Counted from the first letter of the stretch, positions 4,106 to 23,197 are shown. The stretch: DNA of 64,000 bases from an uncultured Bacilli bacterium (GCA_944375905.1 CALWAS010000001.1:1540-65539); one strand, 5' to 3'. Notes: generated by a model from the letters alone, not told the origin. Numbers and translations: made by a program.

Positions 4106-6845
4106 GTTTCTCAGGATGTGGATTTGGCAACACCCTCAAACACTCGCGGATATAGATCTCGCAACGCCGACGTTTCTGAGGATGTGGATTTGGCAACACC
4201 CTCAAACATCCGAAAGCGGGGCGTAGAAAAGCGTGTTGTTTCTGAGGATGTGGATTTGGCAACACCATCAAACGGCAACGCGATCGGCGCCGATCTTTCC
4301 GGTGTTTCTGAGGATGTGGATTTGGCAACACCCTCAAACTCTCCATGATCTCCCCCAGCTTCTTTGCCGGTTTCTGAGGATGTGGATTTGGCAACACCCT
4401 CAAACGGAAGTCCAAGGATAGGCGCGTTTTCCGCCGTTTCTGAGGATGTGGATTTGGCAACACCCTCAAACCCCTATTGCCTTATCTGTTCGCTAAATGT
4501 TGTTTCTGAGGATGTGGATTTGGCAACACCCTCAAACGGATAATCGGACACCTCGAAAATTCCGGAGGTTTCTGAGGATGTGGATTTGGCAACACCCTCA
4601 AACTCAATGTCAGCCATGAACTGACCATACGTTGTTTCTGAGGATGTGGATTTGGCAACACCCTCAAACTGCTTCTGAAAGTAATCCTTATGAAGGTCTG
4701 TTTCTGAGGATGTGGATTTGGCAACACCCTCAAACTCAGCTTGTCGAGGTTGGCGAGAAATGCCTGTTTCTGAGGATGTGGATTTGGCAACACCCTCAAA
4801 CTTATTGGTCATCCCCTCCGCATCCCCTGCGGTTTCTGAGGATGTGGATTTGGCAACACCCTCAAACGATATCCTCGATCTTGTCCATTAGCTTTTTGTT
4901 TCTGAGGATGTGGATTTGGCAACACCCTCAAACTTATTTCCCTAAAGTCCACTACTTACGTATGTTTCTGAGGATGTGGATTTGGCAACACCCTCAAACC
5001 CCCGAAAACGCCGGTCATGGACAACGCTTGTTTCTGAGGATGTGGATTTGGCAACACCCTCAAACAAATGTAGAAAATGGGATTGCAGTATCTCAGTTTC
5101 TGAGGATGTGGATTTGGCAACACCCTCAAACTTATTTCCCTAAAGTCCACTACTTACGTATGTTTCTGAGGATGTGGATTTGGCAACACCCTCAAACGCT
5201 ATCAGGAAGCTTGGGCCGATTACCGGTGTTTCTGAGGATGTGGATTTGGCAACACCCTCAAACCCCTGTCGAAGAGGGTGAGCTCGAAGTCCTGTTTCTG
5301 AGGATGTGGATTTGGCAACACCCTCAAACCCCCTGTGGCGCGCCCTCGGTAGCGACGAAGTTTCTGAGGATGTGGATTTGGCAACACCCTCAAACAAGAG
5401 CCTTGAGAAAGGCAAGGAAGGCTTGTTTCTGAGGATGTGGATTTGGCAACACCCTCAAACAGTGTCTTGAGATACTTCCGGGCGATACTGGTTTCTGAGG
5501 ATGTGGATTTGGCAACACCCTCAAACTTATCTCCCTAAGTACTCCACTACTTACGTGTTTCTGAGGATGTGGATTTGGCAACACCCTCAAACCCACACGT
5601 AGAACGCTCCCCCGGGCTTCAGTTTCTGAGGATGTGGATTTGGCAACACCCTCAAACTTGCAGGGCAGCCAGAGGTAACCAACCTCTGTTTCTGAGGATG
5701 TGGATTTGGCAACACCCTCAAACACCTGACCGGCAACGTCTACTCCCTCTACAGTTTCTGAGGATGTGGATTTGGCAACACCCTCAAACCTTGATGGTCA
5801 TTTTCCTTTTCCTTTTCCTGTTTCTGAGGATGTGGATTTGGCAACACCCTCAAACGAGGAATCGCCCGAAGAGTAATAGCTGAGGGTTTCTGAGGATGTG
5901 GATTTGGCAACACCCTCAAACGCGGTCGTTCCGAAACCTGCCGTTGCCCATGTTTCTGAGGATGTGGATTTGGCAACACCCTCAAACCTGGTACGAGGGC
6001 GGAATAAGCCCGCTTTCGTTTCTGAGGATGTGGATTTGGCAACACCCTCAAACTGTTGAGCGACGCTTGCTGCTGGTTGATCTGTTTCTGAGGATGTGGA
6101 TTTGGCAACACCCTCAAACCGGACGATCGTCGTATATAGTTCCTTGAAGGTTTCTGAGGATGTGGATTTGGCAACACCCTCAAACGTCGTTGCGGCTCAT
6201 TTCAGCTTGATCCTTGTTTCTGAGGATGTGGATTTGGCAACACCCTCAAACCGAATCCGAAATGACCTCGCGGGTACTTATGTTTCTGAGGATGTGGATT
6301 TGGCAACACCCTCAAACCTTGATCGTCATTTTCCTTTTCCTTTCCGGGTTTCTGAGGATGTGGATTTGGCAACACCCTCAAACTAGCGCTTTTTCCAATT
6401 CGTCGAATTTGCTGTTTCTGAGGATGTGGATTTGGCAACACCCTCAAACAACTGTTGGCCAGAAAACCGCGTTTTTCGTGTTTCTGAGGATGTGGATTTG
6501 GCAACACCCTCAAACTATTTCGATTGGCGGGTGGCAGGGAACGTCGTTTCTGAGGATGTGGATTTGGCAACACCCTCAAACCGATATCAAGGATCTCATC
6601 GCGGGAACGCGGTTTCTGAGGATGTGGATTTGGCAACACCCTCAAACATTCCACGAAGCCCTTTCCTAGGTTGAACAGTTTCTGAGGATGTGGATTTGGC
6701 AACACCCTCAAACTCCATAGGGATATGGAGAAAGGAAAACTCTGTTTCTGAGGATGTGGATTTGGCAACACCCTCAAACTGTAGACGCGCGGTATCCGGT
6801 TGCCCGGGAGTTTCTGAGGATGTGGATTTGGCAACACCCTCAAAC
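4106..6845 (-). CRISPR. type II-A CRISPR array: 42 x 36 bp repeats, 41 spacers (39 x 30 nt, 2 x 29 nt)
   Basis: The + strand repeat is GTTTCTGAGGATGTGGATTTGGCAACACCCTCAAAC with a 66 bp period, and I verified every repeat start. Variant repeats lie only at the low-coordinate end (repeat 1 at 4106 has G>C; repeat 3 has C>A at 4267), so the leader is at the 6845 end next to csn2. The array is therefore transcribed on the minus strand, giving crRNA repeat GTTTGAGGGTGTTGCCAAATCCACATCCTCAGAAAC. Confidence 0.97.
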
Positions 6846-6905
6846 CTCTAATTAAAGGTTCTATCGGTGTTTCAAATCCTTAGAAACTCTAACATTAATA
6901 TTCGT
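6846..6905 (-). promoter_or_regulatory. CRISPR leader (60 bp, AT-rich) between the csn2 stop and the newest repeat
   Basis: Assigned by position. On the minus strand it reads ...ATTAATGTTAGAGTTTCTAAGGATTTGAAACACCGATAGAACCTTTAATTAGAG followed by GTTTGAGGG. No convincing -35/-10 pair was identified. Confidence 0.55.
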
Positions 6906-7577
6906 TCAAATCTCGCAAAGATCACGATCAATTTCAATTATGTGTTCGCAAGCGGCAAGACAATCTGGCCTAAAAGCTTCTAAAAGAACAATCGAAATGT
7001 CTTTTCTTTCCATTTCGCGATGGAACGTTCCCAGTTCATCAAGTTCCAAGAAGCCATGTACCCCAAAAATAATCGCTAGTTTTTTCTGGAACAGATGGCC
7101 AACCGCGGACACGGATGATATGAGTCCTTCAAGAAAAGACGAATCATTCCCGGCAGGTTTTAACCCGACAGTCTTTAATAGCGAAGATAGAGCAAATTCC
7201 TCATCCATTTCGAGTGAAACCGAAGCATAGGCGGAAAGGCTCCTGACGTAGTCGACGATGTTTCTTCGAAGACTTTCGAATTCGACCTTTCCGCTTTCGT
7301 CGAGCAAAGATGTTATTTCCTTCACCAATGAGGCTTGCTCTTTCTTTTCATCGCGAGGCCAAAAAAGGGGATCGCTGATAAGGAAGGCGTCTTTTTTCAA
7401 TGAGGCTTGATTTCCGTCGCGAAGATAGAAAAAGTCGCCTTCGTCGTGCTCAATCTGATCTTTCAACTCAGTAATGAACTTTCTTAAAAAGCAAGGATTC
7501 TTGATAATCAGGGTCGTGAATTCGCCATTTCCGGCAATCAATTTCTGTTCAATAAGCCGATGCCTTAGTTCAATCAT
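6906..7577 (-). CDS. csn2: Csn2 (type II-A signature protein)
   Basis: 223 aa, the last gene before the leader. The C-terminal part KKLAIIFGVHGFLELDELGTFHREMERKDISIVLLEAFRP parallels S. pyogenes Csn2 [40 protein letters not shown]. It overlaps cas2 by 4 bp. Confidence 0.85.
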   Translation of the reverse strand: MIELRHRLIEQKLIAGNGEFTTLIIKNPCFLRKFITELKDQIEHDEGDFFYLRDGNQASLKKDAFLISDPLFWPRDEKKEQASLVKEITSLLDESGKVEFESLRRNIVDYVRSLSAYASVSLEMDEEFALSSLLKTVGLKPAGNDSSFLEGLISSVSAVGHLFQKKLAIIFGVHGFLELDELGTFHREMERKDISIVLLEAFRPDCLAACEHIIEIDRDLCEI

Positions 7578-7903
7578 AGGTCCACCACCCGATCAAAATT
7601 CGTTAAGACGTCGGTCTCGTAGTCTCCTAGCAAATAGCTTATGGAATTGAACTGGTTTTCCGTCAATGTCAGGAGCGATACCACTCCGTTTTTAGGCAAA
7701 TTGCCCTTTATCGTTTTTTCGGTCGCCTTGGCCGACGCCTCGTTGACCGATAGCTTGCAGTAAATCGACTTTTGAAAGAGGACAAAACCCTGCTTTTTAA
7801 GAAATTTGACGAATTTGGCGTATTCTCGGCGATCCCTCGCCGTTTCGACTGGCAAGTCGAACATAAGAAGAGATCGCATGAACCTAAATACCGACTCCCC
7901 CAT
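7574..7903 (-). CDS. cas2: Cas2
   Basis: 109 aa. The N-terminus FRFMRSLLMFDLPVETARDRREYAKFVKFLKKQGFVLFQKSIY is the typical type II Cas2 pattern. It overlaps the cas1 end by 20 bp. Confidence 0.9.
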   Translation of the reverse strand: MGESVFRFMRSLLMFDLPVETARDRREYAKFVKFLKKQGFVLFQKSIYCKLSVNEASAKATEKTIKGNLPKNGVVSLLTLTENQFNSISYLLGDYETDVLTNFDRVVDL

Positions 7904-8774
7904 CTTCGAATCCTATTTCAAGCAGAGAATCAACTTTCCCGCCGTTTAATGCCGAGAAAACGGAAAGGCACCAAGGACCAACGGCATTCTGGATTAGCAT
8001 CGTTCTTCCACCGCAACGGCATTCCCTGGTAAAAGACAGAAGCATATCTTTCTTAAAATCATCGGGGTTCAATTTATTTGACAATATGAAGTCATCGACA
8101 AACGGCCTAAAAGGCTCGACGAGATCGCATCCAAGATTGAATTCATTCGTCGGACCACAGTGATGAATGCCGAGCAAATTGCAATATCCGTACGAAGAAA
8201 CCTCGCGGTTCACCATCCCCAGAAGCACTGAATATCCATAGTTTAGGTATGCATTGCGCGAATCTAGCTCATCGCGACGGTCAAAGCCTTCTCCGAAAAT
8301 GGTATTGAAATATACCCTGGCTGCCTGTCCTTCTCTGTTGTTGGAATCGCCGGAAACCGTCTCTTCGCGGTATTTTTTAAGGATTGCGATGCGCTCTGGC
8401 GGAAATCCATGCCGTCTCATGCATGAGATCTGGTTTGATATTTTGGCCATTACGATTTCTTTCCAAACGCCTTCAATTACTCCTTTCTCCCAAGACAGCT
8501 GGCGATATAGCTTCGCCGGCGCATCAAAGCATCCGGCGTATGGGCTTATCTCTCCTTGAGGATTGTGCTTTTGATCGCAGAAAATGACCCTTACCTTATG
8601 GGCGAGGAGTTCGCTTATGAGGGAACCGGTGATGCATGCCTGCGGATTTTCAATTATCAAAACGGCTATTTCATCTAGAAGGACCCTCGTGTCTTTCTCG
8701 GCGCGGCAAACAAGATAGTTAAGCTGGGTCTCGAGTTTGCAACGCGAGGATACCTTCAGGATTCGATAGGCCAT
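7884..8774 (-). CDS. cas1: Cas1 integrase
   Basis: 296 aa with type II Cas1-like layout (MAYRILKVSSRCKLETQLNYLV...VIFCDQKHNP...NAYLNYGYSVL...GIHHCG). It starts 3 bp after the cas9 stop. Confidence 0.9.
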   Translation of the reverse strand: MAYRILKVSSRCKLETQLNYLVCRAEKDTRVLLDEIAVLIIENPQACITGSLISELLAHKVRVIFCDQKHNPQGEISPYAGCFDAPAKLYRQLSWEKGVIEGVWKEIVMAKISNQISCMRRHGFPPERIAILKKYREETVSGDSNNREGQAARVYFNTIFGEGFDRRDELDSRNAYLNYGYSVLLGMVNREVSSYGYCNLLGIHHCGPTNEFNLGCDLVEPFRPFVDDFILSNKLNPDDFKKDMLLSFTRECRCGGRTMLIQNAVGPWCLSVFSALNGGKVDSLLEIGFEDGGVGI

Positions 8775-8777
8775 TCT

Positions 8778-11700
8778 TTAATCCTCTGGAACTTCAAAAA
8801 GGAGATTTTCGTAATAGCCCGTGTAGGAAGTACGTATCAATTTGGTACCTGGCTTCAGAACTTTGCTAATTCGTATCGTGCCAACTGCGGCGGAGAACTC
8901 ATTTCCAAATGATTTTTGCAGATTCACTCTCACAAACTTGCAAGAAAGCAGGCTAACAATGTCATGTAAGGCTAAGCACTGATCAATTGTAGCTAGTGTC
9001 TCAAAAGCAGGTTGGCATATGCGAAGCTTGGAAAGATGGCTTCCCAATTCAGGCAGTTTCGCATAGCAATCGCGCCTTAGCACGTCGTTAAGCAGATAAT
9101 TTAAGAAAGCAAGATTCCCTTTTCTTGATACGCGAGACTCCCCTTCTGAGATTTCTTCTATATGAGTCTCGTCCTCGGAGTAAATAGAAAGGTCTTTCTT
9201 TTTGCCAGCCGGCTCATTGGATCCGATGATTTTACAAATCGATTTGAAATATTCCCTATTTTCTGCATTCATCTCAAGCTCGGATCCATTAATCGCAATT
9301 ATCATGTTCCCGCTTCTTCCGCTTATTGCCAAGCGGACCCGTCTTTTGCTATTTTCAACGGCCATGGAGATAATCGTTCTAATTGGAACTTTTTCTATTA
9401 AAACCTCAGGATCGACAAGCCCGTTGAACGATAAATATTTTTCTATTTCTGGCCTGAGGCTTTCAGTTTGCATTGACGATAAGACAATTTCTGGAATCCC
9501 TTCCAGAGAATAGACATGCTTCTTTCCCTTTCTTGACCTCACTAGCGAATAGAAAGGGGTCGTCATATCGCTATAGCTGCCGTATTTCTTCATCCATTCA
9601 ACCGGTTCGACGCCGTCTGGCACTTTTTTAAGTGGGAAATTGGTTTCCTTGGAATCTTTTCCCTTTACGTAGCCGATTTTATTGAAGAATCCGCTCTTGC
9701 CGCTGAGGTAATTGGGACGGAACGTCACCATGGGGTCGTTCCAGCTCAGGGTCTTCCTGACGAGTTTGATCGTCGAGTTTTCCTTTTCGACCTCCACCGT
9801 CTTATCGTCCTTTTTCACATAATCGCAGGCAACCCAGATAACTTTTCTTAGGTCCCTGGATTTTTGGTCGCGGCGGAAAATCCACTTCGGCCCGGCTTTG
9901 AAGCTCGGATGCCCCTTTGCCTTTTGCTCCTCGACCCATTTTTTGTTGATTCGGCGGCCAAAGCGTTGGTTGTAAACGTCGCCGACGACGATATTGAGGT
10001 AGGCATCGTTGGCATGGTGGAAGTCGTTTAGGTCCCTCACCTTCGGAAGATGGAACATTCCTCGGAAATCGGTAACGAGGCCGGCTTTCGAATAGATGAC
10101 TTCCGTTTCCGGGTAACGCAGCTTGAAAATGTCGCAGACGGCCTTCACCGCCTGGTTCGTATAGACAAGCTGACGGTTCACGAAACCAACGATTTCGTCG
10201 TCCCGCAGTTCTTCTTTCCTAAGAAGGCGCTCGCGCTTTTCCCCGGGCATGAGCTTTCTATTCCCGACCTTGATTTGGGAGAGAATGTCAATCCACTTCT
10301 TCCCTTCCGGGCTTATGAAGCCTGGGGGCAATGGATACTCCTTGTCCTTGAGGTTGTTCTTTGAACGCTTGGTCAAAACAGTGTTCAGGAAGGAGTCGTC
10401 CTTGACGTAGGCTTGGGGGATTATGTGATCGATGTCGTAGTCGGACGATAGACGCTCGAGCTTGATTTCCTCGCCAGTGTAGACATCGTGCCCAAGCTGC
10501 ATGAAATAGAGATATAAGCGCTTTGAGCGAAGCTGGTCTTCGCTTTTGTCGTCAAGTTCCTTTTTGAGGGCCGCGGCTTCCGACTTGAGTAATCCAACGG
10601 CCGCCGAAAGATACTTTTCGATCGACTTCTTGCGCGATTCGGTCGTTTTCGGATCCTTGGCCTTCGAACGGGTGCATTCGACGAATACCTTGTCGAACTT
10701 CTTGATGCCAAGGATCTTCTTTAGCTCGTCGACGATATGGAACGTCTGGAAAAGCGATCTTTTCATTCCGGGCGAGACATAGGCTTCGTCGATCAATTCC
10801 CTCAAAGGATCGCTTTCTCCGCCTTCTTTGAAACGCGAAGAGTTTATGGCCTCGACCTGGGAAGAGAATGAATACTTGTCCCCTTCGTAAATTTCCATGA
10901 AGTTGTCATTCGTCCGGTAGAGGAGGTCCATGATGGAGGAAGGGATAATCTCCCCGGTTTCGCGATTCACGACGTTCTCCTTTATTCCCCTGAGCAGGAG
11001 GTCCGAGACCGGGGCATAGTCCTTGAAGGGAAGGGAACTGGCTTTTTGGGCCTGTTCGGGAGAGAGTAAAGAAGAAAGTTCTTCCATTCTCGTGGCTTTG
11101 TCTTCAAAGGCGGTCACGATGGCGATTATCTTTTCGCCTAGTTCAAAAGCCTCGCGGTTTCGGTAGAAGCCTTCCCCAAGCACCGATTCGAGGGCAATCC
11201 ACGAGGAAAGCGACCCATTAAGCATGTTTTCGAGTTTTTCTTCGTCGTCGGTGTTCCTCGTCGACAAGACGACGGCTTTATCGGCATAAAGCAAGGAAAG
11301 CGACTTTTTGAGATCGCTCGGCTTCACTTTCTTCTTCTTTAGATATACGTCCTTGAGGAGGTGGCGCTTTTCCTCGAAGCTCAAAGGACGGTGGTTGAGG
11401 GAGATGTTGTTAAGCTCGTTGAGGACCTTGAAGGCTTGGAAAACCATCGACGACTTCGGAAGCGTCTCTTCGCCTTTGATGTAGGTGCAGGTATTCCTGA
11501 GATTGTCCATGAATCCCTTGGCCGTTGCCGAGCGGTTGACGACATCGAAGAAATTCCAAGGAGTTATCTTGGTATTCGGATCATTTTTGACGACCCAGTG
11601 GTTCTTGTTTTCCCTCCCTTCTTCCGGGTTGGAAATCGGCCCCACGTAATAGGGAATACGATATCGTAGGAGCGAAAGGATCTTGTAGTCCTCCTTCTTC

Positions 11701-13121
11701 GGGTTGGGGAAACCCTTGTCTTTTTCAAGCAGGAACGGGTAGTACTTCCCCTGCTTTTGGAGAATGATGGCCAATTCCGACTCGTTTAGCTGATAAGGAA
11801 AGACGCCGTTGTGCTTGCTATTTTGCCTCTCGAAGAGCTTGCCAGCCCCGATTCGTCCCCGGAGGTAGGCGACGGTGGGCACAAGCTCCTCTATTTCCGC
11901 TGCCTTGTCGCAAAGGGCGTTTACTGCCTTCATGAAATCATCGGGAGAGCATTTTTTCTCGCAAGTCTTCCCGTCCTTATGGCCGCTCGATCCCGTGAAC
12001 GTAAGGAAGGTAACCCCAGTCGTTCCGTTCCAAAAGTCGTTATAGATGTTCTTTCCGTCCTTCTTCATCATCCCGCGGTCGCGAAGCGCTTTCGTAAGCC
12101 TCCGCAGGGCCTTAAGGTCCTGACCGTATGCTTCGTAGACGGAAAGCATGGCGTCCGTTATCGAGTTCTTTCCCTTGAGCAAATTCACTAGGAGAAGCGA
12201 ATCGGCCAGTTCCTTGGCTTTCGACAAAAGCGATGTTTCCTCGTCGCTTAGCCCATATTGGAGAATCGCGTCATCGAAGTCTTCCATCTCGAAGGAAATG
12301 CCCGTCTTTGCCTTCTCCGGGTCATCGTCTTTTAGGCGAGGGAAGAAATCGGAAAGCTTGCGTTTTCCTCCGGAAATGAAAGAGACGATGGCAGCCTTGG
12401 TCCCCCTTCCCTTTCCTCCTAGAAGGATGCCGGAAACCGATTCCGTCCGGTCGCTTATCCTTTGGTCGCCTTTGAAAAGATCGATCAATTTCTCGGCGGC
12501 TCCCGGTTTTTCCCTCATCGAGAAGCTCTCGACCTCGGATTCTCCGTCCTCGTCCTCGACGGCCAAAGAGGACAGGATCTCGTCTATTTCATCGAATGCT
12601 TCCTCGATTTCCTCTTTTGCGACCCCGCCGGTCGAAATGCTTCCCTCGCGCAGGAAATTGCCGCGGTATTTAATCATGTGGGCTATCGCGAGATAGACGA
12701 GTCTGATGTCAAATTTCCGGTCTTCGCTCATCAAGGCTTTCCGGAGATGGTAAATGGTCTTGTATGACTTATAAAAGGAAAGGTCGTCGGTATAGAAGTG
12801 CTTGGCCCGAAGTTCCGGCATTTTGTCTTCGGGATGGAATTTCGAGGCATCGAGGCGCTTGAAGAAAAGAGGATCGACCTTGTCCATCTCCTCGCGGAAA
12901 AGATCCCTCAAAAGAAGGATGCGGGCCCTCCTTCTTTGATAACGCCTTCTCGCAGCCCGGGCTGCACGCCTGGTGCTTGCGTCCTGTGCCTCGTCGAAAA
13001 GACGGCTGCCCCAAAGGTGCTTTCCGCCCTTCCTGATGAGGTGGTACTCCGGATCGGTAACGGCAAAGCCTACCGAGTCGGTTCCGATGTCGAGTCCCAG
13101 ATAATATTTCCTGTCTTCCAT
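8778..13121 (-). CDS. cas9: Cas9 (type II-A), 1447 aa
   Basis: RuvC-I motif MEDRKYYLGLDIGTDSVGFAV sits at the ATG 13121, with SD AAGGGAAG upstream. HNH motif DYDIDHIIPQAYVKDDSFLNTVLTKRSKNN is present. The track start at 13238 adds 39 non-conserved residues and runs across the tracrRNA gene, so I trimmed it. Confidence 0.95.
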   Translation of the reverse strand: MEDRKYYLGLDIGTDSVGFAVTDPEYHLIRKGGKHLWGSRLFDEAQDASTRRAARAARRRYQRRRARILLLRDLFREEMDKVDPLFFKRLDASKFHPEDKMPELRAKHFYTDDLSFYKSYKTIYHLRKALMSEDRKFDIRLVYLAIAHMIKYRGNFLREGSISTGGVAKEEIEEAFDEIDEILSSLAVEDEDGESEVESFSMREKPGAAEKLIDLFKGDQRISDRTESVSGILLGGKGRGTKAAIVSFISGGKRKLSDFFPRLKDDDPEKAKTGISFEMEDFDDAILQYGLSDEETSLLSKAKELADSLLLVNLLKGKNSITDAMLSVYEAYGQDLKALRRLTKALRDRGMMKKDGKNIYNDFWNGTTGVTFLTFTGSSGHKDGKTCEKKCSPDDFMKAVNALCDKAAEIEELVPTVAYLRGRIGAGKLFERQNSKHNGVFPYQLNESELAIILQKQGKYYPFLLEKDKGFPNPKKEDYKILSLLRYRIPYYVGPISNPEEGRENKNHWVVKNDPNTKITPWNFFDVVNRSATAKGFMDNLRNTCTYIKGEETLPKSSMVFQAFKVLNELNNISLNHRPLSFEEKRHLLKDVYLKKKKVKPSDLKKSLSLLYADKAVVLSTRNTDDEEKLENMLNGSLSSWIALESVLGEGFYRNREAFELGEKIIAIVTAFEDKATRMEELSSLLSPEQAQKASSLPFKDYAPVSDLLLRGIKENVVNRETGEIIPSSIMDLLYRTNDNFMEIYEGDKYSFSSQVEAINSSRFKEGGESDPLRELIDEAYVSPGMKRSLFQTFHIVDELKKILGIKKFDKVFVECTRSKAKDPKTTESRKKSIEKYLSAAVGLLKSEAAALKKELDDKSEDQLRSKRLYLYFMQLGHDVYTGEEIKLERLSSDYDIDHIIPQAYVKDDSFLNTVLTKRSKNNLKDKEYPLPPGFISPEGKKWIDILSQIKVGNRKLMPGEKRERLLRKEELRDDEIVGFVNRQLVYTNQAVKAVCDIFKLRYPETEVIYSKAGLVTDFRGMFHLPKVRDLNDFHHANDAYLNIVVGDVYNQRFGRRINKKWVEEQKAKGHPSFKAGPKWIFRRDQKSRDLRKVIWVACDYVKKDDKTVEVEKENSTIKLVRKTLSWNDPMVTFRPNYLSGKSGFFNKIGYVKGKDSKETNFPLKKVPDGVEPVEWMKKYGSYSDMTTPFYSLVRSRKGKKHVYSLEGIPEIVLSSMQTESLRPEIEKYLSFNGLVDPEVLIEKVPIRTIISMAVENSKRRVRLAISGRSGNMIIAINGSELEMNAENREYFKSICKIIGSNEPAGKKKDLSIYSEDETHIEEISEGESRVSRKGNLAFLNYLLNDVLRRDCYAKLPELGSHLSKLRICQPAFETLATIDQCLALHDIVSLLSCKFVRVNLQKSFGNEFSAAVGTIRISKVLKPGTKLIRTSYTGYYENLLFEVPED

Positions 13122-13150
13122 ACTTCCCTTTCTTTGGCTAGAATAGCCTC

Positions 13151-13236
13151 GGATTTGGCAATCCTGTTCAAATAAGCAAGAATGCCAACACATTGGCCTG
13201 CGTTTGCGGGCAATGACGGCCGATAGGCCGTTTTTC
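13151..13236 (+). ncRNA. tracrRNA: tracrRNA (anti-repeat + nexus-like region + intrinsic terminator)
   Basis: GGATTTGGCAA-TCCTGT-TCAAAT (13151..13173) matches the + strand repeat GGATTTGGCAA-CACCC-TCAAAC. It pairs with the crRNA repeat 5' part in an 11 bp block and a 6 bp block around an internal bulge. It is followed by AAGCAAGAATGCC..., hairpin GCCAA-CACA-TTGGC (13184..13197), and terminator GGCC-GATA-GGCC + TTTTT (13218..13235). A possible -10 TAGAAT lies at 13139..13144. The exact 5' end is not known. Confidence 0.85.
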
Positions 13237-13349
13237 ATTGTTAAAATGATTGTACCCGATGATTTGTTAAGACGACACTTAAAAAGTTCAAACAGCCATT
13301 TTATTTAAGCCTAATGCAGAATGGATTCCATATTCGCCAAGTAAAAAAT

Positions 13350-16538: not shown

Positions 16539-16811
16539 GCTGACTCGCTATATTGTATTTCGATAAGCCAAACAATTGGAGTTTGCTATCACAAACATGC
16601 AATTTGCTTTTTAGATAAAGGCTTCTTTGCAATGGTTTCTCAAAGAAAACGACAAAGAATTCCCGAATAGAATCTTTAAGATTTGCGTTCTGTAACCCAA
16701 TGGTACCAATCGGCTTGTGTACGAGAACATCACATGGAGACACGCATCGCGCAGTCAACACTCACGATTCGACTTAAAGACAAAAAATATCAAATTCTTG
16801 CCACTTTGGCC

Positions 16812-18674
16812 CTAGGCACTGATTTCTTTCTTTGCAAAGCTGCCGATGTAATCTCTTAGAGCATCGTCCTCCGCATAGACATAGCAGCTTTTCTGCCCTC
16901 TCGTCAAAAGCACCTTGTAGGTATCGCGGATGATCTTGTCGGCAATTGATTTGTCGGGCATTTTCTTTAATCCCCGAAGCGACTGATCCGTCTTCGCTCT
17001 TTTGGTGTAGTCGGCCATCACCTTGCCATCGCGATAGACTAGGTCCTTGCCGATGATGACCCCGACATGATCGAATTCAAGTCCTTGGGACGTATGGATG
17101 CAGCCGATTTGGTCGAAACTATCCGGATCGATGGCCCAAGTCGAAGTCGAATTGAAATTCCATTGGGCCTTGAATGATCCGATTTCGATGTCGAAAAGCA
17201 AAGGGTTGCCCTTCGAAACCCAGTCATAGCAATATCCGGCCAGCATCCTGGCTTTGTTATCGGCGTTGAGTTTTCGAAGGTCCTCCATCATCTTGCCGGG
17301 ATCGTCATAGACTCTGAAATCGAAATTAAGCCCCTCGAGATTTGGGTGGGCGGTTTCCCTGATGCCAAGAAGGGAATCTATGAAGGCAAGGTAAGCATCG
17401 CTTCCATTGCAGCGGAATTGGCTCGAAAGGGCGAAGTCGGGTCCGCTATAGAGGAGCGACCCTTCCTTATTGGCCCACTTCGCCACTTCCTCGGACGACC
17501 CAATATCCTTGAGAGTCACAATCTGGTCCTCGTCGAGGAAGAAAACATTCACGAACGAGGCATCGATTATTTCCTTTATCTGATTTTCGCCCTTGTTTTG
17601 GAATATCCCGCTTTTGGCATTGAGACGATGTGCCTCGTCGCAAATGAGGAAGTCAAACTCGTTTTTCCGGCTGCTGACAAAACTGCCGGACCCAAGGAAA
17701 AGATTCTTTAGATACCCGTTTCTGCCTTTCTCGAGCCTGAATTTTTCAAAGTAGACATTGCGGGGCGCGGCATTCTTCGTTACGTAGGCCGAAGTAAGTC
17801 CCCGGTGTATGGCCTCGCTAAGGAGGTTAACCGCCAACACCGATTTGCCGGTGCCCGGGCCGCCCTTCACGAGGATCGTCCTCTTTCGATGGTCTTTTTG
17901 CGATTCCTCGACGAGGCCGAGTATTCTTTCGAAAGCCACCTTCTGGTCATCGAGGAGGACGAACTCTTCGTTTCCCTTGAGAATCGAGACAATCGCGTCC
18001 TGAAGCGTTTTCGAAGGCTTTATCCGGCCGTGGTCGATGGCATAGATGGCTTTCCCTTGATCGCTCGTCTTGACGTATCTTGAAATGAAATCGGCGAGCT
18101 TCAGGCGGTCTTCCTTAAGGAAAAGAGGCGCCTCGAAAATCGATTCGCTATAAAGGGGCCCATCGATTTTCCGACGTCGCGAAGCCGGAAAATTATGGAG
18201 AAACGCGCAGGGCCTAAGCTGAATTTCCTTCTTTTCGAAGCTCTCGTTGAAATTCTCGATCGTCTCGGCATAGCTGCGGGCTTGATAGCAAGGATGGGCG
18301 ACGTTTCTCCTGTTTCCGCCAACGAAGGTATTGACCAAATCCGGGTAAGCGGTAGGTTCCGCGTCCTCCCACTGCTTCAGTTCGACTATGACAACGTTTT
18401 CATGTCCCGACTCGTCGAAGCCGGAAACGAGGAAGTCGATCCTTTTCGCCGTCAGCGGGATTTGAAGCTCTATTGAAACCCGTATGTCGTCAGGCAGACG
18501 TGAAAGCTCGAGGACATTGTCCATTATCGGAAGGGAATTGTTCCAAGCCCGATACTCGCCGGTAGATCCTCCAGAAAGGTGAAATTCGCGAAAGACGGTT
18601 TCCAGCCGATCGGTAAGCACGCCGTATATCACGTCGCTATGGAATTGCGCCTTGGTGTTTTCGTAAACGATCAT
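16812..18674 (-). CDS. PD-(D/E)xK nuclease + DUF2075 SF1 helicase fusion (Schlafen-helicase-like; Nhi-like architecture)
   Basis: The N-terminus MIVYENTKAQFHSDV is typical of DUF2075. The nuclease-like motif is RIDFLVSGF...VVIVELKQW. Walker A is GGPGTGKS, Walker B is FLICDEAHRL, and the C-terminal motif is IHTSQGLEFDHVGVI...LLTRGQKSCYVY. I chose ATG 18674 over the upstream TTG at 18698 used by the track. Confidence 0.8.
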   Translation of the reverse strand: MIVYENTKAQFHSDVIYGVLTDRLETVFREFHLSGGSTGEYRAWNNSLPIMDNVLELSRLPDDIRVSIELQIPLTAKRIDFLVSGFDESGHENVVIVELKQWEDAEPTAYPDLVNTFVGGNRRNVAHPCYQARSYAETIENFNESFEKKEIQLRPCAFLHNFPASRRRKIDGPLYSESIFEAPLFLKEDRLKLADFISRYVKTSDQGKAIYAIDHGRIKPSKTLQDAIVSILKGNEEFVLLDDQKVAFERILGLVEESQKDHRKRTILVKGGPGTGKSVLAVNLLSEAIHRGLTSAYVTKNAAPRNVYFEKFRLEKGRNGYLKNLFLGSGSFVSSRKNEFDFLICDEAHRLNAKSGIFQNKGENQIKEIIDASFVNVFFLDEDQIVTLKDIGSSEEVAKWANKEGSLLYSGPDFALSSQFRCNGSDAYLAFIDSLLGIRETAHPNLEGLNFDFRVYDDPGKMMEDLRKLNADNKARMLAGYCYDWVSKGNPLLFDIEIGSFKAQWNFNSTSTWAIDPDSFDQIGCIHTSQGLEFDHVGVIIGKDLVYRDGKVMADYTKRAKTDQSLRGLKKMPDKSIADKIIRDTYKVLLTRGQKSCYVYAEDDALRDYIGSFAKKEISA

Positions 18675-18855
18675 CTGCGTTTCTCTGCCTTCGAGCAATT
18701 ATACGTAAAGAAAACGGCCATGGGTCTTTCAGATGGCTGATGACCGTTGAAGAAAATACCGATGTTACGAAATGAGACTGATTCCCTGCTAACCGTCAAA
18801 ACGCGAACATTGCGCCTGGACAAATTGATTTTCGAAGAAGAAATGATTTTCCGAA

Positions 18856-21756
18856 TCAATATCCTAGTTCGTAGCCGTAAATCAGATTGTCGCTATAAGA
18901 ACTACCATAGATATAGGCAAATTCGCTTTCATATCCGTCTGGCTTCGAAGTTACTTCCAGGTAGATTCTTGAATCCGCTTGGCTCAAGTAGAAGCTGTGA
19001 TACTCGATGGTCGCAACCGAATCGGGAACGAATATCGAGTACGGAAGGGACGAGCTTTCGCTGTCGTAAAGGAATCCTTCGCCGATGGAATCGACCGTCT
19101 TGCCGCCGATCTGCCGCGGCAGCATTATTTCCGTCTTGCTTCCATAGTAGGCCAGCAGCTTGCCATTTTGATAGACGATTCCGCTATCATCGTCCAAACC
19201 CGAGCCGACTAATGAATGGCCGTAGGTAACGTAATTCGTCGAGTAAAGGTAAATCGGCCCATCCGTCCATCCGTCCCTAAGGGCGCTTCCTTCGTAGTAG
19301 AGATGGCATGATGAATTGATGGTAAATGCGTTGTTGCCGATTTTTTCTATGCTGGACGGAAGATAGACCGACGTGTACCAAATATGATCGGTGGCGAAGT
19401 CGCGATAGATTTCGTTTACCACATTTCCGTCTATTTCGGAAGGAACGTAGAGGGCCCGCGATTTCGGCTCATCCACGGAAATGAGGATAATGCTCCCATC
19501 TGACTTAATGGCGTAATCGAAGATTAAATAACGGCCGAATGATTCAATGTCATAGCCGTAATTGACTTGGCCCGACCCATCAAACCAATTCGTGTCCCAA
19601 TCGTCCGGTTTGGAAGCAGCCGCCGCGAAGACATTGCCTCGGCAGTAAATTGCATCGGCGTTCATGTCGGCCATCGAGGAAGGTATTGAAAGCATTTCGA
19701 CATTCGAAGCTTTGATTCCGTTGGCCTCGATCTTCTTGATTCCATTCTCGATTCTCAACGCTTTGATTTCCGACCACGCGAAGAAAGAATACTTGCCAAT
19801 GGTCGAAACGAGCCTTGTTCCAACCGAAGAAGGAATTACCGGTTCGGTTTCTCCGTTTCCAAGGAAACTAATCAATTTCAAGGACAAGCCATCGCTCAGG
19901 AAATAGGAGTTCGATTCGTCATCGTAGACGAGGTCGGATTCCGATATTCCAACGAGCGGGGCCAGAATTTCCTCGGCTTCTTCCTGAGAATAATCGGAAT
20001 TAATCTGCGGTAGAGAATCGCCGGCAAAAGTCGTTTGGTAAAAAGATAGCTCCGTAGGGAAATACATTTCCATAGTTGACGGCAAGTGAATGAAAACCCG
20101 CTCGGCAAATAGAGAATAGAGTTCGGTCTTTTTTACGCCTTCCGGAACGAAGACGCTATTGTAACGGCGTCCCCCGTTCGCATAGGAATCGTCAAGCTCG
20201 ATAGCCGGCGATACGCTGCCGAAGCCACGCCCAACTACCGAAACGTCCTTCCCTCCGATGCTTGCGGGAATCCGAACGTTTCCATGAACGCTTTCCGGCG
20301 CCTGGTAAACAATAAGGCCGCCGTCTTCGGAATCGGAAACGATGTAGCCGTCCGCCTTGTAACAGCCGTAGGCAACGTAATGCTCGTCATCGCCTGTAAC
20401 ATGGTCGAACGTATCTTTCTTGGAAGCGGCCTCAATATAAACGAAGTTATCCCCAAAAGCGTAACTGCCTATTTCCTCGACTTCATCGTCAAGGTAGTAG
20501 TAAAGCATCGTCGATGAACGTAGGCAGCTTGCGCCGAATCGCTTTACGTTTTCATAGTTTATCGATGTTATCTCATCATATTGGAAAGCGTAATCACCGA
20601 TTTTCTCGATGCTAGGTGAGAGCTCTATCTCGACAATGGCCGTGTTTTGGAATGCATATGCCGGTATTTCTTCAAGCTCGCATTCATTGAAATCGACTCT
20701 CGAGAGACCTGAGCAGCCGCTGAAGACCCTTTCTTCCAAGTAAATGGTATTCTTCGATAGCGACACGGATCGAATCTCGTCATTTTCTTCAAAAGCCTCT
20801 CTATAAATCCCGATGACGGGAACTAGTCCGACATAGTTCGGGATCACGACGTCCACATCGCTTCCCCGATAACCGGATACGACCATGCCTGCCGTCCCGT
20901 TCACGCTAGTCACCACAAAATCAAGGCCGTCGCTTATGGGGTCGCGTCCATCGGCGGTCGGATCGGCCAGCACCCCGGTGTCGTTTTCCCCGATCCACCA
21001 GTTGCCGTTCTCCCCGATGTATGGCGTCTGCCCGTCTTCGGGAATGGGCAATCTGAATTCGTAGCATGAGCCATCGGAAAGTCTTACTTCATAGACGTAT
21101 TCGCCGTCTTGTTCTTTAAGGAAGGAAATGGATTCTATTTTAGTGGTTGATCCATTGGTTACTTCGAACGAAAAGGTCCCGCCGTCGCTAAAGGTCACTA
21201 CATATGTATCGACATCGCCGTCGCTTGAGACCTTTTTTATCGAAACGATGCCATTTCCGTCCTTGCCAGTTGCCGAGACGCCGGTGCTATTGCCGTTGAT
21301 TACCCAAATGCCATCTTCATTTATCTCAATGGTGGGCGTTTTCCCGTTTTCTCCCGGGTTGCCGGTCGCCGAGACGCCGGTATCGACGCCGTCGATCCAC
21401 CAGTTGCCGTTATCGCCTATCTCGATTGTCGGGGTCTTGCCGGGTTCGCCTGGTTTTCCTTGGGAGCCGTCTTTTCCCGGCTCCCCGGTGGCAGAGACGC
21501 CGGTATCGACGCCGTCGATCCACCAGTTGCCGTTATCCCCTATTTCGATTGTCGGGGTCTTGCCATCCTCTCCGGGTTTGCCGTCAGAGCCGTCTTTTCC
21601 CGGCTCGCCGGTAGCCGAATGGCCGGTATCGCTGCCGTTGACCCACCAATTGCCATTTTCGCCAATGTAAGGCTCATTGGTCGATTGCGCAGGCGAGCAA
21701 GAGGCAAGGCCTAGGGCAAAGACACTTGCTAGGAGAAAAATAACGGGTTTCTTCAT
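18856..21756 (-). CDS. surface lipoprotein with collagen-like/GNWW tandem repeats and BspA-type leucine-rich repeats
   Basis: MKKPVIFLLASVFALGLASC carries a lipobox, and SD AAGGTGGA precedes ATG 21756. Repeats have the form GEPGKDGSxGKPGExGKTPTIEIGDNGNWWIDGVDTGVSAT. Recurrent LRR_5-like motifs follow (IGDYAFQ, IGSYAFG, IGKYSFF, IGNNAF, IEYHSFY). Confidence 0.8.
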   Translation of the reverse strand: MKKPVIFLLASVFALGLASCSPAQSTNEPYIGENGNWWVNGSDTGHSATGEPGKDGSDGKPGEDGKTPTIEIGDNGNWWIDGVDTGVSATGEPGKDGSQGKPGEPGKTPTIEIGDNGNWWIDGVDTGVSATGNPGENGKTPTIEINEDGIWVINGNSTGVSATGKDGNGIVSIKKVSSDGDVDTYVVTFSDGGTFSFEVTNGSTTKIESISFLKEQDGEYVYEVRLSDGSCYEFRLPIPEDGQTPYIGENGNWWIGENDTGVLADPTADGRDPISDGLDFVVTSVNGTAGMVVSGYRGSDVDVVIPNYVGLVPVIGIYREAFEENDEIRSVSLSKNTIYLEERVFSGCSGLSRVDFNECELEEIPAYAFQNTAIVEIELSPSIEKIGDYAFQYDEITSINYENVKRFGASCLRSSTMLYYYLDDEVEEIGSYAFGDNFVYIEAASKKDTFDHVTGDDEHYVAYGCYKADGYIVSDSEDGGLIVYQAPESVHGNVRIPASIGGKDVSVVGRGFGSVSPAIELDDSYANGGRRYNSVFVPEGVKKTELYSLFAERVFIHLPSTMEMYFPTELSFYQTTFAGDSLPQINSDYSQEEAEEILAPLVGISESDLVYDDESNSYFLSDGLSLKLISFLGNGETEPVIPSSVGTRLVSTIGKYSFFAWSEIKALRIENGIKKIEANGIKASNVEMLSIPSSMADMNADAIYCRGNVFAAAASKPDDWDTNWFDGSGQVNYGYDIESFGRYLIFDYAIKSDGSIILISVDEPKSRALYVPSEIDGNVVNEIYRDFATDHIWYTSVYLPSSIEKIGNNAFTINSSCHLYYEGSALRDGWTDGPIYLYSTNYVTYGHSLVGSGLDDDSGIVYQNGKLLAYYGSKTEIMLPRQIGGKTVDSIGEGFLYDSESSSLPYSIFVPDSVATIEYHSFYLSQADSRIYLEVTSKPDGYESEFAYIYGSSYSDNLIYGYELGY
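21265..21666 (-). repeat. in-frame tandem repeat (123 bp unit, two near-identical full copies plus diverged flanking copies) in the lipoprotein gene
   Basis: The DNA segment gagacgccggtatcgacgccgtcgatccaccagttgccgttatc recurs at 21371 and 21494, an offset of 123 bp (41 aa). Confidence 0.85.
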
Positions 21757-21781
21757 TCTTAAATCCACCTTAACTTTCTTA

Positions 21782-22192: not shown

Positions 22193-23197
22193 CTACTTGT
22201 CGTACCTGGTCGACGCTCGCTCATTGAGACGCGGAAAGGCAATATAGGTCTCGACCACCTGCTCGGGATGGCGAATCTGCTCGACGATGGCCCGCCCGGC
22301 CGAAAGCCCGAGCGAATGGACATCGATCGAGACGCTCGAAAGCTTCGGCTTCGTATATAGGGCCAATGGGTAGTCGTCGAAGGTGATGATCGATATCTCG
22401 CTAGGAACCTTCATCTTCGCGTCCTGGACCGCCCGCAGGGCCCCGAGGGCCAGGAAGTTGTTGGCCGCGACGATCGCGTCGTATTTTCTTTGGGAAAGGG
22501 CCTTCCTTACTGCCTTCTCGGCCTGGATGGCGACCGGTTCGAGCGAAAGGATGTCGCCTTCGTCCAGCCCGATTCCCTTCTTTTCGAGGACCCTTCTCAC
22601 CCCGAGGAGGCGGGAGCAGGAAATGTTGTCGGCCACTTCCCCGCCGACGAAAAGGAAGCTCCGCCGGCCATGGGAAAGAAGACAATTCGCCGCGACCTCG
22701 CCGCAGACCTCGTTGTTGTTGTCGATCCAGGAAAGGGAGCACTTTTCCTTCGGTTCCCCGATGAGGAGCGTCGGAAGCGCATACTCGCGGACGATGCCCA
22801 ATAGTTCGTCCGACACCTCGATTCCATGGACGACGAGCCCGTCCATTTCCTTCTGGGAAGCCATCTTTCGGAGGGGAGTGAGATCGCCGCGCTCGACCTG
22901 GAGGAAATAGACCCGGTACTTGTAGCGCATGAGGCTATGCTCGATCCCGGAGAGGATCGCGAACTTGTGCGGGTCCTCGAAAAGAGTCTCGTAGGAAGTG
23001 AGGAAAACGACCGAGGAGGTCTTCCCGGTAGCGAGGCTTTTGGCCTTCCGGTCGGGAACGAAGCGGAGCTTCTTCATCGCCCGTTCGACCTTTTCCCGCA
23101 CCTCCGGGGAGACGCTAGGAAAGGAGTTGACGACCCGGGAGACGCTCGCGGTCGAGACCCCCGCTTCCTTTGCGACGTCGTTGATGGTTGCCGACAT
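22193..23197 (-). CDS. LacI-family transcriptional regulator (maltodextrin locus)
   Basis: N-terminal HTH ATINDVAKEAGVSTASVSRVVN followed by a periplasmic-binding-fold body. It is the last gene of the sugar operon. Confidence 0.9.
   Translation of the reverse strand: MSATINDVAKEAGVSTASVSRVVNSFPSVSPEVREKVERAMKKLRFVPDRKAKSLATGKTSSVVFLTSYETLFEDPHKFAILSGIEHSLMRYKYRVYFLQVERGDLTPLRKMASQKEMDGLVVHGIEVSDELLGIVREYALPTLLIGEPKEKCSLSWIDNNNEVCGEVAANCLLSHGRRSFLFVGGEVADNISCSRLLGVRRVLEKKGIGLDEGDILSLEPVAIQAEKAVRKALSQRKYDAIVAANNFLALGALRAVQDAKMKVPSEISIITFDDYPLALYTKPKLSSVSIDVHSLGLSAGRAIVEQIRHPEQVVETYIAFPRLNERASTRYDK

Follow-up and report, generated by a model that had tools for sequence, protein, structure and literature searches.

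The 64,000-nucleotide stretch of DNA analyzed here, from an uncultured Bacilli bacterium (GCA_944375905.1 CALWAS010000001.1:1540-65539) and referred to as the window herein, carries a gene for a protein in which a predicted PD-(D/E)xK nuclease is joined to a DUF2075 helicase. An earlier note, made by eye from the sequence, had placed this gene at 16812-18698 and proposed it as a candidate single-gene antiphage defense. One uninterrupted open reading frame (ORF) does occupy that interval, on the minus strand; the plus-strand translation of 16812-18698 is interrupted by many stops. The coding sequence (CDS) probably begins further in, at the ATG at 18674 rather than the TTG at 18698, since homologues from many phyla share the N-terminus MIVY... 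with the product of this ATG, and since the TTG falls inside a TATAAT hexamer (18698-18703). The resulting CDS, 16812-18674 (-), encodes 620 amino acids (aa), the length given in the note, and every motif quoted there is present in the minus-strand translation: RIDFLV (residues 78-83), VVIVELKQW (94-102), GGPGTGKS (271-278), FLICDEAHRL (342-351), and IHTSQGLEFDHVGVI (526-540). A consensus promoter scan found no full -35/-10 pair for the gene, and a terminator consensus scan returned terminator-like sites only at chance level. Relative to a 98% identical sister strain, the gene is under purifying selection, with a ratio of nonsynonymous to synonymous substitution rates (dN/dS) of 0.09, next to 0.08 for the LacI gene of the same window. 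Selection was gauged against this strain only because dS is saturated in comparisons with the next relatives, at 72% and 69% identity.

The C-terminal domain of the protein is certainly a DUF2075 helicase of superfamily 1B (SF1B), as the note had recognized at the level of superfamily 1. Pfam PF09848 (SLFN-g3_helicase, formerly DUF2075) matched residues 264-603 with an expectation value (E) of 7e-91 and 305.6 bits, compared with a cut-off of 24, and the model was covered wholly (positions 1-354 of 354). The SF1B/Upf1-like motifs GGPGTGKS, DEAH, IHTSQGLEFD, and LLTRGQK are all present and conserved. Our alignments of 60 close homologues and 46 phylogenetically scattered ones revealed invariant residues in motif V (I526, H527, T528, Q530, G531, E533, and D535) as well as in the linker region preceding the helicase (H160, Y175, P183, G216, P220, L224, G234, F238, D242, and Q244). 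The AlphaFold2 model of the whole protein had a predicted local distance difference test score (pLDDT) of 86.7 and a predicted template modeling score (pTM) of 0.88. When this full model was compared to the PDB with Foldseek, the matches included RecD2 (2.8e-10), human SLFN11 (1.9e-9), the Dna2 nuclease-helicase (8e-9), T4 Dda (8e-7), and Upf1 (~5e-6), along with coronavirus nsp13, Ighmbp2, and SLFN14; those to RecD2, Dda, and Upf1 all had a probability of 1.00. A whole-protein sequence search of the PDB gave only P-loop noise (IstB, KaiC).

The N-terminal domain is predicted to adopt the fold of PD-(D/E)xK nucleases. In the AlphaFold model of residues 1-260 (pLDDT 86, pTM 0.85), a helix (38-57) is followed by three strands (65-71, 78-86, and 92-100), inserted hairpins (105-126), a second helix (128-142), and a last strand (152-159), an order which, as modeled, is the canonical alpha-beta-beta-beta-alpha-beta core of these enzymes. 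The model places E69 on the first strand, D80 on the second, E98-x-K100 at the end of the third, and Q131xxxY135 on the second helix; a QxxxY helix motif is typical of nucleases of the RecB/Cas4/Exo5 branch. The residues invariant in both homologue alignments include E69, R78, D80, E98, L99, K100, W102, H127, P128, Q131, and Y135, and Asp80 and VELK align with PDILLL and IECK, respectively, of the experimentally verified antiphage protein Nhi-like, which is described below. Weak matches to the NERD family (PF08378) extend across the nuclease core in three of six relatives, with E-values of 0.0025-0.018 and 16-18.7 bits, below its gathering threshold of 22.1. Upon comparison of the 260-aa N-terminal model to the PDB, Foldseek ranked Card1 (E = 0.017), EndoMS/NucS, MspI, EcoO109I, SfsA, and Exo5 at the top, all of them weak and individually not significant; against viral models (BFVD), the best E was 0.025, and PD-(D/E)XK proteins, UL24, and endonuclease I led the list. 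No cysteine cluster motif was found in the nuclease domain. As the Foldseek E-values never improved on 0.017, the fold rests on motifs, topology, and remote homology, and we regard it as well supported, but not proven. Ideally, the HMM or structural support asked for in the note would be stronger than this: the confident AlphaFold model has the right topology, but Pfam returned no match for the window N-terminus and the Foldseek matches were insignificant. The nuclease plus DUF2075 architecture itself holds up, given the invariant residues, the model topology, the sub-threshold NERD matches, and the colinear homology with Nhi-like. The positions of all features are collected in Table 1.

Table 1. 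Features of the nuclease-DUF2075 gene and its surroundings in the window, with positions counted from the first letter of the window.
Feature	Position	Strand	Basis or remark
620-aa nuclease-DUF2075 CDS	16812..18674	-	ORF, translation; ATG 18674-18672, stop 16814-16812
Candidate -10 box TATAAT	18698..18703	-	24 nt upstream of ATG; read from sequence
Predicted PD-(D/E)xK-type (NERD/RecB-like) nuclease core, residues ~38-160	18195..18563	-	Model, invariants, weak Foldseek/NERD matches
Codon of invariant Asp80 (RIDFLV)	18435..18437	-	Predicted metal-binding catalytic residue, strand beta-2
Codons of invariant Glu98-Leu99-Lys100 ((D/E)xK, VELK)	18375..18383	-	Strand beta-3
Codons of Gln131-x-x-x-Tyr135 (QxxxY)	18270..18284	-	Helix after ExK; Q131, Y135 invariant
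Conserved helical linker, residues 161-263	17886..18194	-	SF1 Q-motif-like D242-x-Q244 just before Walker A
DUF2075 / Schlafen group-3-type SF1B helicase domain, residues 264-603	16866..17885	-	Pfam, Foldseek
Walker A GGPGTGKS, residues 271-278	17841..17864	-	Invariant G271, G272, G274, T275, G276, K277
Walker B DEAH, residues 346-349	17628..17639	-	D346, E347, H349, R350 invariant
Helicase motif V region IHTSQGLEFD, residues 526-535	17070..17099	-	Sequence, conservation
UvrD/helicase IV-like protein, 1062 aa	13350..16538	-	Fills gap between cas9 and nuclease-DUF2075 gene
Type II-A CRISPR-Cas locus	4106..13238	-	Pfam on the identical gene set of the sister strain (L081)
cas9	8778..13238	-	
cas1	7884..8774	-	
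cas2	7574..7903	-	
csn2	6906..7577	-	
LacI-family regulator, core-genome edge of variable defense slot	22193..23197	-	GC jump

The architecture and the probable role of such a protein are already known. Nhi (SERP2475) of Staphylococcus epidermidis, which the earlier note had named as a staphylococcal antiphage enzyme of this kind, is 606 aa long and consists of an N-terminal PD-(D/E)xK domain of ~230 aa and DUF2075; its N-terminal 230 aa have 3'-5' exonuclease and nickase activity, its helicase is bidirectional, the full-length form is autoinhibited, and phages escape it via their SSB, a protein that binds single-stranded DNA (Bari et al. 2022). Lactococcal AbiO is an experimentally supported defense protein with the nuclease-DUF2075 layout. 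Nhi-like of Bacillus cereus FSL H8-0482 (system SG141) was tested as an antiphage protein and described as having no sequence identity to Nhi (Millman et al. 2022). Phage methylase mutants escape Nhi-like, implying that methylation sensitizes phage DNA to it. What is new here is that the window gene falls in a separate family, that this family has no PADLOC v2 model, and that it has unreported associations with accessory genes.

We calibrated the PADLOC models with the sequences of Nhi and Nhi-like from the supplements of these papers, that of the B. cereus Nhi-like protein being partial. The Nhi model gave true Nhi 523 bits and the AbiO model gave it 465, each over the full length (positions 2-469), so that Nhi and AbiO make up one family; Nhi-like scored 254 bits on PDC-S41 (PDLC05014), which identifies it with this PADLOC candidate. 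Our literature search found no paper on PDC-S41. The window protein scored 40 bits on Nhi (PDLC02372) and 47 bits on AbiO (PDLC02350), over positions ~175-349 of 470, and 48 bits on PDC-S41, over positions 33-274 of 657. Family members reached 53-74 bits on PDC-S41 with partial coverage, and the scores of the window protein and six relatives on the three models ran from 40 to 74 bits, always over part of the model. Alignment with SERP2475 matched nothing beyond 24 residues around Walker A and 26 columns at motif V, the latter with a probability of 53%. The alternatives that the note had left undecided, a true Nhi orthologue or a new variant, can therefore be separated: orthology is ruled out by the 40 vs. 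523 bits and by the restriction of the alignment to these two motifs. Membership in PDC-S41 is ruled out as well, by the 48 vs. 254 bits and by a genuine PDC-S41 gene (E = 8.6e-242) that occurs as a separate neighbor of one family member, which makes the two families paralogous. The family profile nonetheless aligned with Nhi-like in hhalign at 97.1% probability and E = 6.9e-11 over 271 colinear columns (window residues 38-353) that span the nuclease core, linker, Walker A, and Walker B at ~21-22% identity, and BLASTP with the window protein gave E = 2e-6 at 22% identity. As judged by sequence, this colinear homology supports a shared superfamily rather than family membership, and the window gene represents a third nuclease-DUF2075 family, closer to Nhi-like than to Nhi.

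The family is large and widespread. A word-indexed protein search gave at least 8,000 matches; among the matches listed were full-length proteins of ~620 aa with 55-72% identity, and their source names were few ("DUF2075 family protein", "ATP-binding protein", and "uncharacterized"). With the N-terminal 240 residues as query, phmmer found 1,548 clusters (50% identity) at E <= 1e-3, of which 767 reached E <= 1e-10; nearly always, residues 1-240 of a protein of 620-650 aa were matched. For the loci of relatives we used contigs from one genome per species and simple ORF calls, and took the best 80 of at least 545 loci, which have 46-57% identity to the window protein. These come from Bacillota of many orders, Mollicutes, Spirochaetales, Oxalobacter, Gamma- and other Proteobacteria, Bacteriovoracaceae, Bacteroidota, Rubricoccaceae, Saccharibacteria, and the archaeal genus Methanobrevibacter. 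Full-length archaeal members with 45-47% identity occur in Methanobrevibacter (L050, L059) and on plasmids of Methanosphaera (H1/H2) and Halalkalicoccus (H5), pointing to transfer between domains. In total, 89 plasmid records carry the family, including archaeal megaplasmids, under the RefSeq name "DUF2075 domain-containing protein"; 76 of them are non-mobilizable large replicons with defense-type neighbors. The family is found in four of 50,697 phage records, one with a MazG partner (L091:5657-5986). The patchy distribution across domains, at roughly constant identity, argues for extensive horizontal transfer.

Variants of the architecture were also seen. Six proteins of 785-815 aa (P0220, P0221, P0228, P0238, P0257, and P0291) have a C-terminal Peptidase_S24 domain (LexA/UmuD-type), a fusion that might couple activation to RecA/ssDNA (single-stranded DNA) signals, and P0251 (1068 aa) is a family member fused to a second, PIF1-like helicase. 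A GIY-YIG-DUF2075 protein lies directly upstream of a PD-(D/E)xK-DUF2075 homologue (L082:8129-9955), and two DUF2075 genes stand side by side on a Hymenobacter plasmid (L089:8098-9987). Such tandem paralogues suggest nuclease-domain swapping on a common helicase chassis.

Within the window, the nuclease-DUF2075 gene is co-directional with cas9, and 3.57 kb separate its stop (16812) from the cas9 start (13238), in keeping with the same orientation and the ~3.7 kb estimated earlier; the UvrD-like gene that occupies this interval had gone unmentioned in the note. Its composition sets it apart from the core genome, as had been read by eye from the AT-richness of the region: the gene has a GC content of 50.8% and a GC content at third codon positions (GC3) of 63%, close to the island genes (49-51%, with 49-50% for the UvrD-like, cas9, and leucine-rich repeat (LRR) genes; island GC3 58-63%), vs. 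58-60% and 76-85%, respectively, for the core genes lacI, amylase, dnaE, polA, and thrS. The host belongs to an uncultured Bacillota lineage, and core genes of the window include a Firmicute-type DnaB loader, DnaE, PolA, and ThrS; the closest named ThrS, from a "Bacilli bacterium" MAG, has 71% identity. Among clusters at 90% identity, the DUF2075 protein has 6 members and the UvrD-like protein 7, compared with 13-18 for core genes. The same amylase-LacI operon precedes different cargo in different assemblies of the species. In the sister strain (L081), it is followed by an ORF of 89 aa, the DUF2075 gene, the UvrD-like gene, and cas9-cas1-cas2-csn2; the window has this block plus an inserted 970-aa LRR/collagen-like lipoprotein gene. 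In another assembly (L087:11803-21005; also L088), genes for an Eco57I-like protein, a helix-turn-helix protein, HsdM, an HsdS fragment, HsdR, and T5orf172 come after LacI, and in L086 (11449-12599) an HsdS fragment lies there at the contig end. The slot after LacI is a defense hotspot with exchangeable cargo, and the gene in it is intact, constrained, horizontally acquired, and accessory. It offers a clean natural example of CRISPR-Cas and a nuclease-DUF2075 gene alternating with a Type I restriction-modification (R-M) system between strains.

Several other features of the window deserve mention. By Tandem Repeats Finder, the CRISPR array (4106-6845) has a 66-bp period and ~41 units, with a repeat of ~36 nt (GTTTCTGAGGATGTGGATTTGGCAACACCCTCAAAC); the ORFs called across it at 4632-5432, 6202-6843, and 6214-6669 are translation artifacts of the repeats. 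Inserted in the UvrD-like protein is a segment similar to T7 endonuclease I (PDB 1m0d, E = 0.003) in which the ExK lysine is replaced by Tyr (VYLEHYG). The protein also has cysteine-rich C-terminal repeats, a weak RQC-like match, and many PADLOC matches of the GajB/RTasHel type, and its gene is a second candidate for defense. The 970-aa collagen-like/BspA-type LRR lipoprotein gene (18856-21768, -) lies between the LacI and DUF2075 genes and is absent from the sister strain, where only the 89-aa ORF is found; the hotspot has therefore undergone a further insertion or deletion at this point. Elsewhere, a 462-aa ORF (45148-46536, +) comprises a complete Fpg (residues 1-271) and the dephospho-CoA kinase CoaE (278-456), which are either truly fused or were run together by the ORF call.

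The 72% homologue adjoins a GIY-YIG-DUF2075 paralogue and a 2208-aa DUF4011/AAA_11/AAA_12/MTES_1575 helicase. The 69% homologue is flanked by an AAA_14 ATPase and a GIY-YIG protein, after which come either a protein of 731 aa or a SIR2 protein of 950 aa and an IS1595 transposase. Both the 72% and the 69% loci are set between common flanks. The 217 genes within two positions on either side of the homologue in the 80 loci matched 113 and 117 different Pfam families, and no conserved housekeeping partner was found among them by Pfam. Recurrent Pfam families, whose counts come from top-25 summaries and are lower bounds, were DUF3427/PLD/ResIII, Fic, HNH, NERD, RVT, AAA_21, HEPN_AbiU2, and SLATT. 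PADLOC matches at E <= 1e-10 included mREase_IV, SoFic, DRT reverse transcriptases, dGTPase, Mokosh, Cas3, a CBASS cyclase, Hhe, AriA, and several PDC candidates, and the Hymenobacter plasmid copy stands beside a restriction endonuclease, a DNA methyltransferase, the second DUF2075 gene, and transposases. Type II cas genes (cas9-cas1-cas2) lie within 10 kb in two of the 80 loci, and a UvrD-like homologue was found in none of these neighborhoods; neither CRISPR-Cas nor the UvrD-like gene is a dedicated partner. Rather than the conserved housekeeping contexts that the earlier note had weighed against its own proposal, we found a strain-variable slot and heterogeneous, defense-rich neighbors, and the location in a defense island is borne out by cargo swapping between strains, foreign composition, and these neighbors.

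Among the 70 loci with enough flank, 36 have a MazG-like gene (~105 aa) directly beside the DUF2075 gene and on the same strand, upstream in 28 and downstream in 8, often with gaps of -4 to +17 bp (for instance, L018:9679-9999 and L004:9666-9992); five more loci have one within 10 kb. The product is a PF12643 pyrophosphohydrolase (E = 4e-18); among solved structures, it is closest to murine and human dCTP pyrophosphatase 1 (DCTPP1/RS21-C6, E = 4e-19), an enzyme that hydrolyzes dCTP and 5-modified dCTPs. At 13 loci we observed a PLD-helicase-DUF3427 protein of 930-1050 aa and/or a NUDIX hydrolase. The former corresponds to PADLOC mREase_IV (E down to 1e-304) and has the architecture of SauUSI, a Type IV enzyme dependent on 5-methylcytosine or 5-hydroxymethylcytosine. 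In at least nine loci from different taxa (L009, L019, L021, L032, L034, L067, L075, L078, and L080), Type IV, NUDIX, MazG, and DUF2075 genes run in one direction and follow each other closely, in shuffled order, a pattern typical of functional linkage, which suggests a shared role against modified DNA. In a neighbor-joining tree, members with and without MazG are interleaved, and the window clade (the window protein, P0001, P0002, and P0004) is entirely solo; neither tblastn nor hidden Markov model searches of six-frame translations found a MazG-like partner or remnant in the 64-kb window. The ORF of 89 aa at 16492-16761, considered as a MazG-like partner, was rejected, having no Pfam match and overlapping the start of the UvrD-like gene. 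Two unusual MazG-cluster proteins were seen in relatives: a 313-aa protein (L019:9047-9988) with an S-adenosylmethionine-dependent methyltransferase domain (Methyltransf_25/23) N-terminal to MazG, and a 206-aa protein (L053:12992-13612) whose start is similar to it. The literature searched contains no paper that mentions MazG together with DUF2075; in passing, a 2019 paper notes that the DUF3427 enzyme McaZI adjoins a DUF2075 NTPase.

Based on these results, we propose that the window gene encodes a self-contained, ATP-driven nuclease-helicase that most likely protects its host from phages and from invading DNA of other kinds. Its DUF2075 SF1B motor, at the C-terminus, would load on foreign DNA and translocate along ssDNA, with a predicted 5'->3' polarity by analogy with RecD2, Dda, and Dna2, and would feed or position the strand for the PD-(D/E)xK nuclease (E69, D80, E98, K100, Q131, Y135), which would cut or degrade it. 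The nuclease activity, the polarity of translocation, and the antiphage function are what we infer by analogy. The cue that tells self from nonself would most likely be DNA modification on the invader, as in Type IV-like, modification-dependent restriction, because the gene has no cognate methyltransferase, because phages escape Nhi-like through their methylase, and because the family is linked to enzymes acting on modified cytosine. By these analogies, modification dependence is the leading cue within the defense explanation, though unproven, and we consider the explanation as a whole, this favored cue included, to be probable by a reasonable measure.

Several observations count against it. 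The support for modification dependence is indirect: the methylase escape belongs to a protein that is only ~22% identical, neither the window copy nor its closest relatives are accompanied by MazG, NUDIX, or a Type IV enzyme, Pfam found no modification-reader domain (e.g., DUF3427) in the window protein, and the MazG/NUDIX partners could equally fit a role in the nucleotide pool or in DNA repair. The nuclease domain never obtained a Foldseek E better than 0.017 in the PDB or BFVD, a lenient Pfam scan of the N-terminus (E <= 10) gave no match, and neither did the N-terminal family profile against PDB sequences. PADLOC v2 would not call the window gene, and the literature searched holds no paper testing its family.

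The main alternative to a modification cue is that the protein is an autoinhibited nuclease-helicase of the Nhi type, which senses phage replication intermediates (free 3' ends, ssDNA, SSB-coated DNA) and degrades replicating DNA. Domain order and size are those of Nhi (606 aa), the activities, autoinhibition, and SSB-dependent escape of which are documented; a solo gene without a modification-related partner would suit such sensing, and the Peptidase_S24 fusions hint at ssDNA/RecA signals. We find this account rather unlikely, since the sequence relation to Nhi comes down to Walker A and motif V, since the closer relative, Nhi-like, was escaped through a phage methylase, and since genes for MazG, NUDIX, and Type IV enzymes are linked to family members. 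The same linkage could be turned toward housekeeping. MazG/DCTPP1-like and NUDIX proteins are classic house-cleaning enzymes, the model matches the structure of Dna2, which shares the nuclease plus SF1B layout, the LexA/UmuD-type S24 fusions suggest SOS coupling, and the window contains fpg and genes for DNA polymerases at other positions, all of which would be compatible with a damage-tolerance or repair enzyme (Dna2/AddAB-like end processing), accompanied in relatives by pool sanitation through MazG/NUDIX. However, a gene present in only about half of the assemblies of its own species, with an R-M system in its place in the others, of foreign composition, patchy across phyla, archaea, and plasmids, and flanked by defense genes and transposases instead of repair operons, makes a poor repair enzyme, and we give this reading very little credence.

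Two further explanations concern the company that the gene keeps. It could serve the neighboring type II-A CRISPR-Cas system as an accessory, or form a two-gene system with the UvrD-like helicase, instead of acting alone: the DUF2075, UvrD-like, and cas9 genes are co-directional in a block conserved in the sister strain, four contigs share the DUF2075 and UvrD-like genes, cas9-cas1-cas2 is found no more than 10 kb away in two of the other 80 loci, and the genes of the block are alike in GC content and dS. Yet CRISPR-Cas and the UvrD-like gene are both missing around the 72% and 69% relatives, 78 of the 80 loci lack type II cas genes nearby, a UvrD-like homologue occurs in 0 of 80 neighborhoods, co-inheritance is confined to this species, and intergenic gaps of 273 bp and 111 bp give no sign of tight coupling; a dedicated partnership of this kind seems highly improbable. 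It is just as hard to credit that the gene serves a mobile element, for the element's own replication or for competition between elements, and is in the chromosome incidentally. The 89 plasmid records with their archaeal megaplasmids, the four phage records, one with a MazG partner, and the transposases near some loci speak for mobility, but occurrence in phages is very rare (4/50,697), most of the plasmids (76 of 89) are large replicons that are non-mobilizable and have neighbors of the defense type, and no integrase, replication, or transfer genes surround the window copy. Competition between elements would anyway be a form of defense.

If the proposed defense nuclease-helicase is active, it would add a compact, one-gene system to the defense toolkit. 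In bacteria, the Schlafen helicase module has its counterparts in the nuclease-DUF2075 enzymes, two families of which, Nhi/AbiO and Nhi-like/PDC-S41, are already proven single-gene antiphage systems; the third is not recognized by PADLOC v2 models, and inventories from such catalogs would therefore miss it. The recurrent linkage to MazG, NUDIX, and Type IV enzymes raises the idea that, in immunity against phages whose DNA is modified, the degradation of nucleic acids is coupled to the cleansing of modified nucleotides from the pool. A bolder extension, which we hold only tentatively and would sooner doubt than assert, is that the entire family is a widespread class of modification-dependent restriction coupled to the sanitation of modified deoxynucleoside triphosphates (dNTPs), ancestrally a two-part system with MazG from which solo copies were streamlined. 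If so, the nuclease-DUF2075 enzyme would destroy invader DNA containing modified cytosines, and the DCTPP1-like MazG, often with NUDIX and a SauUSI-type enzyme, would hydrolyze modified dNTPs, thereby either starving the phage of them or barring them from host DNA and averting self-restriction.

Among known systems, Nhi-like is the nearest. The two proteins (611 vs. 620 aa) share a colinear PD-(D/E)xK core, linker, Walker A/B, and DUF2075, with the motifs PDILLL...IECK...QxxxY in Nhi-like and IDFLV...VELK...QxxxY in the window protein, and Nhi-like too is a single-gene system found in defense islands; antiphage activity and methylase-dependent escape have been shown for Nhi-like only. Nhi and AbiO likewise combine an N-terminal PD-(D/E)xK domain and a DUF2075 SF1 helicase in one chain of ~600 aa, act as single-gene antiphage defenses in defense islands, and have Dda, Upf1, and Dna2 as structural kin. 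They differ in having no meaningful sequence similarity to the window protein beyond Walker A and motif V, and the cue described for Nhi is phage replication/SSB, not modification.

Further afield, the eukaryotic group-3 Schlafens (SLFN5/11/13/14), which have antiviral or genome-guardian roles, also carry a C-terminal PF09848 helicase, and the structures of SLFN11 and SLFN14 match our model, at ~11% identity in structural alignments. Their N-terminus is a Schlafen-core (AlbA_2-type) RNase, whereas that of the window protein is of the PD-(D/E)xK type, and Pfam found no Schlafen-core domain in it. Dna2 is a single chain in which an SF1B helicase comes after a RecB-type PD-(D/E)xK nuclease, and it matches the model with E = 8e-9 over ~557 columns; unlike the accessory, horizontally transferred window gene, it is conserved and serves replication and repair, and its nuclease contains an Fe-S cluster. 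Finally, Type IV enzymes of the SauUSI type are NTP-dependent nucleases without a cognate methyltransferase, as predicted for the window protein, and are physically linked with the family in at least nine of the 80 loci. The parts from which the two are built are different: a PLD nuclease, an SF2 helicase, and DUF3427 in SauUSI, vs. a predicted PD-(D/E)xK nuclease and an SF1B DUF2075 helicase in the window protein.

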